Virus record (IMG/VR): IMGVR_UViG_3300045988_000590
Coordinates: 1-5,617 of that record
Source of the DNA: a virus
Length of the DNA stretch: 5,617 nucleotides
Strand: one strand, 5' to 3'
This document shows positions 1,994 through 5,617 of this stretch, piece by piece. Both the position numbers and the translations under genes were made by a program. Numbering within the stretch: position 1 is the stretch's first letter; each line of letters begins with the position of its first letter. The notes under the pieces are model-generated. The model was not told the DNA's origin. It searched no databases and saw only the letters and a program-made list of their open reading frames with translations.

Positions 1994-2389
1994 ATGCCAC
2001 GTGAAGAATACAGCTTATTTAATCAGAGCACCCACCAGATAAGTGAACACTTCAAAGTAAAAGAATTTGCACAAAAAGACTTCCGATGCGACAAGGTAAT
2101 TGTGGACACAGAACTTATAGACGTTTTGGAAGATATACGCGCACATTTCAACAAACCGGTGATTGTAACATCTGGATACCGGACACCAGAATACAACGCA
2201 AAAATCGGCGGTGTAAAAAACTCACAACACACAAAAGGCACGGCGGCCGATATCCAAGTATCTGATATTCCGGCAAGATGGGTACAAAAGTATCTGAAAG
2301 ACAAATATCCAAATAAATACGGCATCGGAAGTTATTTAACTTTCACACACATAGACATAAGAGCTAAAAAAGCACGTTGGAGGGGCTAA
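1994..2389 (+). CDS. Zinc D-Ala-D-Ala carboxypeptidase-like cell-wall peptidase, M15 family (Peptidase_M15_3 / M15A-like)
   Basis: 131 aa. It carries SEHFKVKEF, SGYRTPEYNAKIGGVKNSQHTKGTAADI and FTHIDIR. This is the H-x6-D...H zinc triad (H79 at nt 2228-2230, D86, H119) and the SGYR..N..GG..S.H..G.A.D signature of this family. No N-terminal hydrophobic signal is present. Confidence 0.9.
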   Translation: MPREEYSLFNQSTHQISEHFKVKEFAQKDFRCDKVIVDTELIDVLEDIRAHFNKPVIVTSGYRTPEYNAKIGGVKNSQHTKGTAADIQVSDIPARWVQKYLKDKYPNKYGIGSYLTFTHIDIRAKKARWRG

Positions 2390-2392
2390 AAA

Positions 2393-2647
2393 ATGACACT
2401 GAAATTCTACAGTTTTCACGATGCAATCACGAATGGCTACAGCAGCCCTTTCTTGCAGCAGAACAGGGCGCAGGCAATCCGAACCGCAAAGTGGAAGGCA
2501 AACGAGTCCAAACTGCAGGAAATCGAGGACATCAGTTTGGTAGAGCTGGGCGACTTCAACACGGAAACCGGCGAAATGTTCGGAGCAAAACCGAACCAGC
2601 TGTGCAAGCTGGTAGACCTTAAGGAGACGTACAATGCTAAATCCTAA
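2393..2647 (+). CDS. VP5-like non-structural protein (gokushovirus ORF5 family, proposed ssDNA synthesis/packaging role)
   Basis: GGAGGGG at 2379-2385 lies 7 nt upstream of the ATG at 2393. The 84-aa product has FYSFHDAITNGYSSPFLQQNRAQAIR and EDISLVELGDFNTETGEM. These match the remembered VP5 pattern (..yD.....y..PF......A.R.f ... eD..L.e.G.fd..tG). Confidence 0.75.
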   Translation: MTLKFYSFHDAITNGYSSPFLQQNRAQAIRTAKWKANESKLQEIEDISLVELGDFNTETGEMFGAKPNQLCKLVDLKETYNAKS

Positions 2648-3065
2648 CGTTCTGGTACGGTACTACGGAATGCCAACCGAAAGAGTGACAAGCAAAACCG
2701 GCAGCGAAACGGCACCAACGTGGAAAGCGGTAAAGCGACCGAACGGCAAAACGGACTACATCCGACAACCGGATGAAAATGTCTACGAAAAAATTCAGAA
2801 GGCGGGCGAGGGGTACGACCTCGCAAGCGCAATCGCGAGACTAGAAGCCGGAGATTTTTCCATCAAAGCAAAGAGCACAATCTACACAGAAGGCACGCCA
2901 CTGGAAAATCTGCCTAAAGACATCGTGACGATGCACGAAACGGCACAGAGGGCAGCGGAAACGCTGGAACAGCTGAAACAGACACAGAAGACCGAACAGC
3001 CGAAGCCGGAAGAGAAGCCGGAAGAAAAAAAAGAGGAGGTGAAGCAGAACGAACCGGAACAGTGA
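2634..3065 (+). CDS. Putative internal scaffolding protein (VP3-like) with E/K/P-rich C-terminal tail
   Basis: AAGGAG at 2621-2626 lies 7 nt before the ATG at 2634. It overlaps the VP5-like stop by 14 nt. It is 143 aa and sits directly upstream of VP1. The segment TEGTPLENLPKDIVTMHETAQRAAETLEQL loosely resembles the VP3 'D.t.lP......a...F..L' region. Coding status is likely. The functional call is tentative. Confidence 0.6.
   Translation: MLNPNVLVRYYGMPTERVTSKTGSETAPTWKAVKRPNGKTDYIRQPDENVYEKIQKAGEGYDLASAIARLEAGDFSIKAKSTIYTEGTPLENLPKDIVTMHETAQRAAETLEQLKQTQKTEQPKPEEKPEEKKEEVKQNEPEQ
3002..3025 (+). repeat. Perfect 12-nt tandem duplication inside the VP3-like gene
   Basis: gaagccggaaga at 3002-3013 and again at 3014-3025. 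It encodes the repeated KPEE/KPEE part of the low-complexity tail. Confidence 0.9.
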
Positions 3066-3090: not shown

Positions 3091-4743
3091 ATGGAAAGAC
3101 CGCGATCAAAATTTGACCGCGGTCATCAGCTTTTGACGACCATCAACGAAGGCGAACTGGTACCAATCTATATGGATGAAGTGCTGCCGGGTGACACGGC
3201 ACGGATACAGCTTAACGGGCTTATTCGTATGAGCACACCTATCTATCCCATCATGGATAACTGCTACATGGACACATATTTCTTCTTTGTGCCTGCAAGA
3301 CTTTTGTGGGAACACTTTGAAAATATGTTCGGTGAAAACGACACCGACTATTGGGCAGAAGATACAGAGTATTCCACTCCTAAATGCACCATCGGCGGCA
3401 CCAGCGGCCTTGAAAATGGTTCCATCGGTGACTACTTCGGACTGCCGACACAGGTAACGAACGCGCTGGAAGTAAACGCATTACCTGCACGAGCATACTG
3501 CAAAATTTACAACGAGTGGTTCAGAGATGAAAATCTCGAAGCGCCGCTTATGTTGGGATACAAAAAAACGGATGACGGTGGAACGACCGCAGACGCAAGC
3601 AAAGTAACCGAAAATGCAAACGCTCTCGACCAGACGACCAACACCAACGAAGCAACGCTGTATGCAATGAAACCGGCAAGGGCGGGCAAATTCCACGATT
3701 ATTTCACATCTTGCCTTCCTTCGCCGTTGAAAAATGCAGAACCGGTAACACTGCCAATGGCAGGAGCAGCGGGAGTATATGCATACTCAGACAAAGAACT
3801 TAAAAATAAAACGGGACAAACAATAAACAGCTTTACAAGTCAAACAGATGCCGGAGGAACAACAAATCAAAGGCTTTACGATATGTTACTCTGGGAAGGA
3901 ACGCCGGCACAAACATATGTAGGAAACGGAACGGCAAAAGAAATAAGCTATCTCGGAGCAGACCTAAGCAACGTAACAGCAACAACCATCAACGACTTAC
4001 GACAAGCTATAGCGCTGCAGCACATCTTCGAAGCCGATGCCAGAAACGGCACGAGGTACAGAGAATTCCTTTCCGGGACATGGGGCGTAACAAGTCCGGA
4101 CAGCCGTCTGCAAATTCCTGAGTACATCGGCGGGCAGCGCATTGCAATCAATGTGAATCAGGTGGTGCAGACCAGCCAGACAGACACCACGACCGGGCAG
4201 GCACTGGGCAACACGGCGGCATACAGCCTGACAACCTGTTCAAAACAGATGGCAGACTATGCAGCAACGGAGTACGGCTATATCATCGGTCTGGCAGTGG
4301 TACGAGTGGAACACAGCTACCAACAGGGCCTTGGAACCAAATGGACGCGCGGCGGTCGTTTCACGTACTACGACCCACGTCTTGCAGCACTGGGTGAACA
4401 GCCAGTATACAATCGCGAGATCTACGCAGACGGAAGCGAAAAAGATAGCCAGATTTTTGGCTATCAGGAAGCTTGGGCGGATTACCGCTACAAGCCTTCC
4501 TACGTAACCGGAGAAATGAGGTCAAACTATCAGACGTCTTTGGATGCATGGCACTATGCAGACGACTATGACAAGCTGCCGACACTGTCGGCGGAGTGGA
4601 TTCAGGAAGGACGTGAAAACATCGATAGAACTATTGCGGTAACGTCCGCAGTAAGCCACCAATTCTTGTGTGATTTCTGGTTCAATGAAACGTGGTTCAG
4701 GGAAATGCCTATCTATAGCATCCCGGGAATCGAAAGAATTTAA
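3091..4743 (+). CDS. VP1: Major capsid protein VP1 (Microviridae F-protein family)
   Basis: 550-aa ORF. RSKFDRGHQLLTTINEGELVPIYMDEVLPGDT followed by YFFFVP is the hallmark N-terminal block of Microviridae capsid proteins. Large T/N/G-rich insertions lie at aa ~158-190 and ~221-296. It ends at TAA 4741-4743. The true start is probably upstream of 3091 (see findings). Confidence 0.95.
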   Translation: MERPRSKFDRGHQLLTTINEGELVPIYMDEVLPGDTARIQLNGLIRMSTPIYPIMDNCYMDTYFFFVPARLLWEHFENMFGENDTDYWAEDTEYSTPKCTIGGTSGLENGSIGDYFGLPTQVTNALEVNALPARAYCKIYNEWFRDENLEAPLMLGYKKTDDGGTTADASKVTENANALDQTTNTNEATLYAMKPARAGKFHDYFTSCLPSPLKNAEPVTLPMAGAAGVYAYSDKELKNKTGQTINSFTSQTDAGGTTNQRLYDMLLWEGTPAQTYVGNGTAKEISYLGADLSNVTATTINDLRQAIALQHIFEADARNGTRYREFLSGTWGVTSPDSRLQIPEYIGGQRIAINVNQVVQTSQTDTTTGQALGNTAAYSLTTCSKQMADYAATEYGYIIGLAVVRVEHSYQQGLGTKWTRGGRFTYYDPRLAALGEQPVYNREIYADGSEKDSQIFGYQEAWADYRYKPSYVTGEMRSNYQTSLDAWHYADDYDKLPTLSAEWIQEGRENIDRTIAVTSAVSHQFLCDFWFNETWFREMPIYSIPGIERI

Positions 4744-4753
4744 GAAAGGAGGA

Positions 4754-4780
4754 AGCCGGGCAAAGACCCGGCTATTTTTA
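4754..4780 (+). terminator. Rho-independent terminator downstream of VP1
   Basis: The 7-bp stem pairs agccggg (4754-4760) with cccggct (4767-4773). The loop is caaaga. It is followed by attttta (five consecutive T at 4775-4779). It begins 11 nt after the VP1 stop. Confidence 0.7.
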
Positions 4781-4781
4781 A

Positions 4782-5617
4782 ATGGGTACACTTTTATCAT
4801 GGATGCCGTACATCATGCAGGGGCTTAGCCTGCTGACAAGCGTTGCAATGAGCTCAAACCAGAGCAGTGCAACAAGCAGCCAGAGAGCCGGAAAAGAAAC
4901 ATCAAGCGGAAGCGAAACAACAACCGGAAGCCTGACAGCACCGCAGCAAATTGGCTCAACACAGATTGGAACACCAACAGGCATCACCACATACAACAAT
5001 CAGGGCAGCGTAAACATGGCAAACGGCATGAGCTTTTTAAGCTCTATTATCAGTAATCTGATGAACGCAGGAAGCCAAGCAAGCGCAAAAAAGTACAACT
5101 CCGCAGAAGCGGCGGCAGAAAGAGCCTTTGCAAAGGAAATGCGCGGCACAGCATATCAGGACACTGTAAAGGACATGATCGCAGCGGGCATCAATCCAAT
5201 ACTAGCGGCAAACAACGGCGCAACAGCAACGCCAAGCGGGGCAAGTGCAAGCATCGGAACACAGCACTACAACCAGCAGAGCGCACAAGCGGCGGCAGTA
5301 TCAGCTATGTACGAATACGGCAACAACACCGCAGAGCTGGCAAACCGATATCTAGAGCTGGCAAAGAAAAGCACCAGTGCAAAGCAGTACCATTCTGCAA
5401 AGAGCTTTAATGAAGCGGCAAGCAGTCTGGCACAATCAAGTGCAAAACAGGTCAGTAATTACAACTATGCGGCAAACAACTTACTCGACGAGCTGGGAGA
5501 CGCAGGAAACAAACTAAGAGACGCAGGAGACAAAGCGGCCGAATCAGCAAAAGGCGCAGGCAGAAAAGCAGCATCGGCCTTTAAAGACAGCTGGGAAAAA
5601 GGCGGGAAAAACATCAC
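4782..5617 (+). CDS. VP2: DNA pilot / minor capsid protein VP2 (5' part; continues through the circular junction to 110)
   Basis: The frame is open from the ATG at 4782 to the window end, so it has no stop and is absent from the ORF track. It contains AERAFAKEMRGTAYQDTVKDMIAAGINPILAA, the conserved TAYQ..v.DM..AG(I/L)NP.LA core of Microviridae VP2/H-like proteins. The flanks are S/T/A/G/Q-rich low-complexity sequence. Other in-frame ATGs are at 4803 and 4815. Confidence 0.9.
   Translation, partial: MGTLLSWMPYIMQGLSLLTSVAMSSNQSSATSSQRAGKETSSGSETTTGSLTAPQQIGSTQIGTPTGITTYNNQGSVNMANGMSFLSSIISNLMNAGSQASAKKYNSAEAAAERAFAKEMRGTAYQDTVKDMIAAGINPILAANNGATATPSGASASIGTQHYNQQSAQAAAVSAMYEYGNNTAELANRYLELAKKSTSAKQYHSAKSFNEAASSLAQSSAKQVSNYNYAANNLLDELGDAGNKLRDAGDKAAESAKGAGRKAASAFKDSWEKGGKNI
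5563..5617. repeat. Right copy of the exact 55-nt terminal direct repeat
   Basis: Identical to 1-55 base for base. Confidence 0.95.

Follow-up and report, generated by a model that had tools for sequence, protein, structure and literature searches.

Known and proposed lysis genes of described microviruses

Few ssDNA phages of the human gut are as abundant as gokushoviruses and, to our knowledge, none of the latter has an experimentally defined lysis mechanism. In having one dedicated lysis gene and no holin, phiX174 (gene E, which acts through inhibition of MraY) is comparable to the virus described here and its candidate gene, but E is a non-enzymatic transmembrane protein embedded in another gene, whereas the present candidate is a soluble enzyme with its own reading frame. 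An endolysin that comes without a holin, a signal sequence or a spanin poses the question of how a folded cytoplasmic enzyme gets to the wall.

Genes for M15_3 peptidases were reported by Roux et al. (2012) in 11 human-associated microviruses, five of which were gokushoviruses, and an unknown ORF lay beside 5 of the 11 peptidase genes (PMC3394797). The M15_3 proteins of human-gut Gokushovirinae and Alpavirinae were proposed in that study to act as endolysins, and were shown to have been acquired horizontally from prophage lysis modules (PMC3394797). In the marine Occultatumvirinae, most members have a gene for a peptidase or an endolysin-like protein (PMC11499846), and a lys gene is present in Rhizobium microviruses (PMC9512667). 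Degradation of peptidoglycan by Gp7 of Ebor was shown in 2025; to its authors, no earlier case in an ssDNA phage had been verified by experiment (PMC11980548). A tblastn search with the peptidase of the present virus returned relatives in 799 phage records, at least 111 of them microviruses. An earlier note on this DNA had held muralytic genes to be rare in microviruses, a view that is outdated in the light of these four reports and of the tblastn count. The peptidase is a known type of gene, correctly read in that note, and the genome joins a group that is already documented and adds little as a discovery. Literature searches on how microvirus peptidases might be released without a holin yielded only the 2012 hypothesis.

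The human-gut gokushovirus peptidases of Roux et al. have their Pfam family, subfamily, habitat and slot after VP4/VP8 in common with the gene described here, as well as the proposed endolysin role and horizontal origin, and nothing essential differs (PMC3394797). At the protein level, the peptidase is 94% identical to an unannotated homologue in KT264784.1 and 73% identical to the 'peptidase M15' of KX513864.1. What the present comparison adds to that study is that the neighbouring ORF represents a lineage-wide family independent of the peptidase, that the nearest donors are complete holin-endolysin-spanin cassettes, and that the coding strand is wholly without a transmembrane segment. Gp7 of Ebor, a Tainavirinae microvirus of Rhodobacter capsulatus, is likewise a microvirus-encoded peptidoglycan hydrolase (a predicted one in the case of the present peptidase), but it is apparently of a different family; it is termed a lysozyme in the authors' methods, and its HHpred match is 6SSC (PMC11980548). 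Ebor also has a 45 aa predicted membrane protein, Gp1 (PMC11980548), whereas the present genome is without one.

The genome and its peptidase gene

The window is the whole stretch of DNA that was analysed (5,617 nt; IMG/VR record IMGVR_UViG_3300045988_000590). Its first 55 nt are identical to its last 55 nt, so that it represents a complete circular genome of 5,562 nt, and IMG/VR lists it among its virus records as having direct terminal repeats. It is a complete gokushovirus, an ssDNA phage of the human gut. The window is 93.9% identical over its full length to KT264784.1 (Gokushovirus WZ-2015a isolate 36Fra03, from human faeces, France), and 79.5% identical to KX513864.1 (Human gokushovirus SH-CHD1) across 91% of the window. 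Only VP1, VP2, VP4 and VP5 are annotated in KT264784.1 (L001 in our comparison), and its peptidase (4461–4853), ORF35, VP8-like and VP3-like genes are unannotated.

Every gene of the genome lies on the + strand. The replication initiator VP4 (nt 611–1609, PF23343) is followed by the late block, the first gene of which specifies a 38 aa, arginine/lysine-rich, VP8/J-like DNA-binding protein (nt 1734–1850; PHROG 10695, E 2.7e-6) that is almost unchanged across the relatives examined. Next come ORF35 (35 aa, nt 1885–1992), which has no Pfam or PHROG match, the M15_3 zinc peptidase (131 aa plus stop, nt 1994–2389; PF08291) and a VP5-like non-structural protein (nt 2393–2647; PF20577 Phage_ORF5, E 1.2e-12). 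The VP5-like gene begins 4 nt past the peptidase stop and is the downstream boundary of the accessory slot. A scaffold-like (VP3) protein with a weak PF09675 match (nt 2634–3065), the major capsid protein VP1 (nt 3091–4743; PF02305, E 6e-146) and the pilot protein VP2 (nt 4782–5617, continuing over the circle junction through nt 1–110; PHROG 18604, E 1e-131) complete the map.

A promoter-like site (TTGACT-17-TATAAT, nt 1675–1703, + strand) precedes the VP8-ORF35-peptidase-VP5-VP3-VP1 block; it is the sole 11/12 match in the window, and the total of such sites is not above that in shuffled sequence. A terminator-like hairpin with a T-run (nt 4754–4773, + strand) is found 3′ of VP1, and is likely to be where transcription through the peptidase gene ends. 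The two elements, which are consensus matches only, flank VP8, ORF35, the peptidase, VP5, VP3 and VP1, and since they bracket this block the peptidase would probably be made alongside the structural proteins.

The peptidase ORF runs from an ATG at nt 1994 to a TAA at nt 2387–2389 (+ strand), with a GAGG-type ribosome-binding site 5′ of the ATG. The protein matches the Pfam family PF08291 (Peptidase_M15_3) with 94.1 bits, where the cut-off is 23.2 (E 7.1e-27, profile positions 2–108 of 108), and the match was also recovered in a profile search at the DNA level. The second family that the earlier note had named, PF13539, gave no match; a second, weaker Pfam match was to PF05951. PHROG 894, annotated as 'endolysin', matches with E 9.3e-44. 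The signature SGYR...GG..SQH..G.AAD...H.D described in the earlier note is complete, and S60, R63, G72, G73, S77, H79, G82, A84, D86, H119 and D121 do not vary among 21 homologues with identities down to 50%. Two of these residues, H79 and D86, form an H-x6-D zinc motif, and lie within the block that HMMER aligns to NSRH...AAD of 1LBU. The sequence F117-T-H119-I-D121 is also invariant in the homologues and falls on strand 118–121 of the predicted model; H119 and D121 are the candidates for the third zinc ligand.

The AlphaFold2 model of the peptidase has a pLDDT of 93.2 and a pTM of 0.87. Foldseek matched it, with probabilities of 0.9–1.0, to 1LBU, VanY, the Sonic hedgehog N-domain, ChiX, LysECD7, Ply500 and the T5 endolysin; as judged from the model, the peptidase and its top PDB matches have the LAS (lysostaphin / D-Ala-D-Ala peptidase / Sonic hedgehog) fold in common. 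Among solved structures, the top match in both sequence and fold is the zinc D-Ala-D-Ala carboxypeptidase of Streptomyces albus G (1LBU, MEROPS M15A). Its H-x6-D zinc motif aligns with that of the peptidase, but identity is just 21%, the TM-score is about 0.5, and 1LBU has an extra N-terminal domain. The top viral matches in BFVD were phage "Peptidase M15A" proteins (TM-score 0.93), several of them from microviruses. Comparison with 21 relatives gave dN/dS values of 0.10–0.50, which show that the peptidase gene is under purifying selection. The reading of the gene as an intact M15 zinc peptidase of the peptidoglycan type is borne out by the PF08291 and PHROG 894 matches, the invariant residues and the fold match, with its activity being predicted.

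Origin of the peptidase and its path to the cell wall

Among the matches listed, the tblastn relatives at 45–56% identity were mostly from Enterobacterales podophages (SP6/K1E-like, Acadevirus, Vectrevirus). In a tree of M15 domains, the window lineage (22 gokushovirus sequences) was sister to the endolysins of Proteus Acadevirus and the enzyme of a Gilliamella prophage, with an SH-aLRT of 96. Over the whole catalytic domain, the peptidase shares 50–56% identity with the endolysins of the Gilliamella prophage and of podophages of the SP6/K1E-like and Acadevirus groups (e.g., Proteus phages PM 93 and BigMira), which are, like it, of single-domain size (about 117–131 aa). These endolysin genes adjoin holins and spanins, whereas the microvirus gene has neither. 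In Gilliamella, a 95 aa holin with two transmembrane segments ends at the peptidase start, and the peptidase is followed by an Rz-like protein with an embedded, lipobox-containing Rz1-like ORF. In Proteus phages, annotated holins or membrane proteins and spanin-like ORFs all lie 3′ of the M15 gene, and a Geosporobacter prophage encodes a two-TM protein 5′ of its M15 gene. As the nearest non-microvirus relatives reside in complete lysis cassettes, the microvirus took the enzyme only, and not the holin or spanins; tree and gene neighbourhoods together indicate that the peptidase was captured alone from a tailed-phage lysis cassette.

The Gilliamella prophage cassette (L022/L037, nt 5708–6845) is a compact, textbook arrangement of holin, M15 endolysin, Rz-like i-spanin and Rz1-like o-spanin. 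As a guide to the host, the relatives of the peptidase were set aside, as the nearest of those from bacteria and prophages, in Gilliamella (53%), Geosporobacter (49%) and Papillibacter (47%), leave the choice between Gammaproteobacteria and Clostridia ambiguous; the top BFVD matches, which bear on the same matter, were multi-domain gut phage peptidases.

Acquisition of M15 genes has occurred more than once. At least four M15 lineages were present among the sampled gokushoviruses, and a separate acquisition is seen in L069 and L081 where, judged against their M15-less sister genomes, about 430 nt with M15 alone stand in place of about 600 nt of unrelated small ORFs. An M15 gene is present in each of the 24 genomes that make up the VP1 clade of the window, and this one clade contains at least three M15 lineages, on either side of ORF35 (L003, L043, L045, L046 and L048 versus the window clade), a mixture that is consistent with repeated capture or replacement and with selection to retain such an enzyme. 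More than 100 protein clusters (at 90% identity) are 69–97% identical to the peptidase, and those for which a long contig is on record come from contigs of 5.4–6.1 kb. The peptidase has become fixed throughout a large group of related human-gut gokushoviruses, in a variable accessory slot that the VP8-like gene bounds on one side and the VP5-like gene on the other.

The slot that M15 uses in L069 and L081 contains other small, soluble ORFs in their sister genomes (L070, 4434–5033; L074, 5405–5527; L079, 5482–5649), one of which is Cys-rich (…CxGACEKCPCHD…).

Hydrophobic segments were sought in all + strand ORFs of at least 20 aa, and from stop to stop in all three + frames, using the Kyte-Doolittle mean over 19 residues. 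None of the + strand ORFs of at least 20 aa reached a mean of 1.4, and just three windows exceeded 1.0 in the stop-to-stop scan: one in an alternative frame of VP1 (1.45), one in ORF35 (1.29) and one at the N-terminus of VP2 (1.18). The first of these (nt 3261–3317) was rejected as a gene, as it spans 19 codons from stop to stop and has no suitably placed ATG, GTG or TTG. No small protein with one or more transmembrane domains (a holin) was found in the ORFs and open frames scanned on the + strand, nor did the all-frame scan of this strand reveal a short transmembrane protein of the phiX174 E type, including one embedded in another gene. Spanins (an i-spanin with an N-terminal transmembrane segment, an o-spanin with a lipobox) were sought on the same strand, and no ORF had a hydrophobic N-terminus. 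As to a SAR or signal segment, the peptidase N-terminus (MPREEYSLFNQSTHQISEHFKVKEF) is polar, and no part of the protein ranks among the genome's ten most hydrophobic windows. The claim that the peptidase is accompanied by no holin and has no signal peptide therefore holds for every frame of the + strand and, as the earlier note also stated, the route of the enzyme to the wall is unexplained by any recognisable holin, SAR domain, signal peptide or spanin.

The sole moderately hydrophobic segment in a known gene is the N-terminus of VP2 (LLSWMPYIMQGLSLLTSVA), which is a candidate for the cause of membrane damage. Hydrophobic ORFs on the minus strand (e.g., nt 278–385 and 2023–2325) were discounted, because a T-rich strand, such as the complement of this A-rich + strand (AT skew of 0.2–0.47), is expected to contain them. 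The first of them is a translated (CTA)5 microsatellite. This microsatellite/iteron non-coding module reads …LLVVVVVVG… on the minus strand in the window, and does so on the gene (+) strand in an M15-less clade (L053, L057, L061, L068, L071, L076, L077), and so may be oppositely oriented relative to the genes in the two clades.

The peptidase is probably a captured endolysin that serves the release of progeny, with a membrane-passage step that was not identified in the genome. The M15_3 zinc peptidase, of LAS fold, would cut the peptide part of peptidoglycan. Its transcription would probably begin at the promoter-like site at nt 1675 and take in the structural genes as well. The enzyme would build up as a folded protein in the cytoplasm, and be harmless there until the membrane fails; once the cytoplasmic membrane is breached, the wall would be degraded and progeny released. 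A role in lysis is inferred by homology with the holin-dependent relatives, and the substrate is most likely the mature wall, to judge from the holin-gated enzymes with 50–56% identity. Directly shown are the family and fold of the protein, the conservation of its catalytic residues, purifying selection on the gene, its capture as a single gene, and the lack of any transmembrane or signal sequence. Counting against the endolysin reading is that, with no holin, SAR domain, signal peptide or spanin encoded, the peptidase, as a cytoplasmic protein, would have no evident path to the wall.

That same lack of an export device would be accounted for if the enzyme never had to leave the cytoplasm. As an 'enzymatic amurin', it would act on precursors in the cytoplasm (UDP-MurNAc-peptides, or lipid I/II in the inner leaflet), whose stem peptides it would cut, thereby starving the synthesis of new wall and leading to lysis of the phiX174 E kind without a holin. 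Capture of a single gene would also be explained, and there are M15 relatives, such as VanX, that use cytoplasmic substrates (fold match 1r44). Yet the nearest relatives (50–56% identity) are holin-gated endolysins, in which toxicity to the cytoplasm would spoil the timing set by the holin, and no residue change was found that sets the microvirus clade apart, so that we regard such a mechanism as highly unlikely.

A peptidase carried in or on the virion could instead open the wall locally for DNA delivery at entry. In BFVD, large tailed-phage proteins that are associated with the virion, Gp5-like and 'cell wall hydrolase' proteins among them, do contain M15A domains, and Gp7 of Ebor is present in virions at trace level (PMC11980548). 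The gene is, however, unfused to VP2 or any other structural gene, many close gokushovirus relatives infect without a peptidase, and the nearest relatives are cassette endolysins rather than virion proteins; we give an entry role, which none of the present results favours, very little credence.

The ORF35 family and a transmembrane micro-ORF in M15-less relatives

ORF35 starts 7 nt from a consensus Shine-Dalgarno sequence (AGGAGGT), and its product consists of an amphipathic helix and a poly-Glu tail. It is kept in all close relatives (L001, L002, L005–L021) and, summed over comparisons of residues 1–26 with 21 relatives, showed 40 non-synonymous and 92 synonymous differences. ORF35 is a real gene. 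The family has a core of I-L-x-x-x-D-x-I-Y-H, and residues I13, L14, D18, I20, Y21 and H22 are invariant in the family alignment. The core motif was found at 60 IMG/VR loci, all on microvirus-sized contigs (4.1–6.0 kb), and all 19 ORF35 matches in the phage collection, weak ones included, were to microviruses. ORF35 is, on the evidence of these matches, a member of an unannotated, gokushovirus-wide family of small proteins.

In mycobacteriophage Ms6, a small acidic chaperone (Gp1) escorts LysA out of the cell. ORF35 in the window clade is also small, acidic and coupled to the peptidase gene, and the two could form a two-component lysis unit in which ORF35 either opens the membrane as an oligomer (holin- or disruptin-like) or escorts the enzyme out. 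The ORF35 stop lies 1 nt before the peptidase ATG in this clade, and the gene has its own strong Shine-Dalgarno sequence, is the most hydrophobic real ORF of the coding strand and is under strong purifying selection; in the ORF35-based sample, every M15-positive genome has both genes close together, and usually adjacent. Partnership is not what the wider distribution suggests. Among the 64 near-complete genomes tallied, nearly all with the ORF35 motif, M15 is present in 35 and absent from 29. Gene order flips among lineages, with ORF35 upstream of M15 in the window clade, L031, L032, L044 and L047, and downstream of it in L003, L029, L034, L035, L043, L045, L046, L049–L052, L059, L069 and L081. 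In Dulem virus 203 (L088), ORF35 is missing although an M15 gene occupies the same slot. An acidic partner of the Ms6 Gp1 type would be tied specifically to the endolysin, whereas ORF35 occurs without M15 and on either side of it, and M15 occurs without ORF35. Adjacency of the two genes is accounted for by their common use of an accessory slot, which holds unrelated cargo in the M15-less relatives.

The properties of the protein point the same way. Across the family, the hydrophobic moment is high throughout (0.52–0.74), but mean hydrophobicity takes values between -0.12 and 0.41, and net charge values between -9 and +1. Three of the invariant residues are polar (D18, Y21, H22), and distant members have charged residues all along the helix, so that a membrane span is not conserved, nor is the acidic tail. 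These features describe what would be a soluble amphipathic helix with specific polar contacts, neither a membrane span nor a dedicated partner of the peptidase. ORF35 as a holin was rejected in view of the co-occurrence data, the gene order and a hydrophobicity that is not conserved. A two-component unit is accordingly distinctly unlikely, and ORF35 is an unlikely membrane-passage factor for the captured endolysin. The dependence on the upstream 35 aa protein that the earlier note had considered is thus weakened, both by a family that lacks M15 in about half of the sampled genomes and by the two-sided gene order and the M15-bearing L088. ORF35 is no longer the prime holin candidate, and attention shifts to the peptidase alone and to a transmembrane micro-ORF of the M15-less relatives.

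Many M15-less relatives have a conserved micro-ORF of 32–38 aa with a single transmembrane segment (e.g., MSAVYTGVTVACLAAGLVFIVFAIDIIKEWFK in L055) and a C-terminal I-D-I-I-K-x-W. Examples are found at nt 5227–5325 of L055, 3824–3922 of L053, 3422–3538 of L030, 3394–3510 of L033, 3441–3560 of L034 and 5366–5482 of L077. This ORF is a candidate lysis or holin-like gene. By raw counts, 32 genomes had M15 only, 18 the transmembrane micro-ORF only, 11 neither and 3 both. Of the three with both, just L052 looks real; L034, a partial locus, is a further case. Mutual exclusion was rejected as statistical evidence, because the VP1 tree implies two changes per trait, which provide only two independent contrasts, and the pattern is a lead rather than evidence.

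On a more speculative reading, the soluble M15 peptidase would be the only lysis effector of its clade, acting without a membrane-spanning helper and interchangeable with the transmembrane micro-ORF, which M15-less sister clades have in the same accessory region, an arrangement that we consider unlikely. Conceivable routes would then be cytoplasmic attack on wall precursors, or a non-transmembrane factor such as the ORF35 helix or VP2. Were the two indeed interchangeable lysis modules, the micro-ORF would be the long-missing lysis gene of gokushoviruses. In L030, L033 and L034, where its position was checked, the micro-ORF directly follows the VP8-like gene and overlaps its stop.
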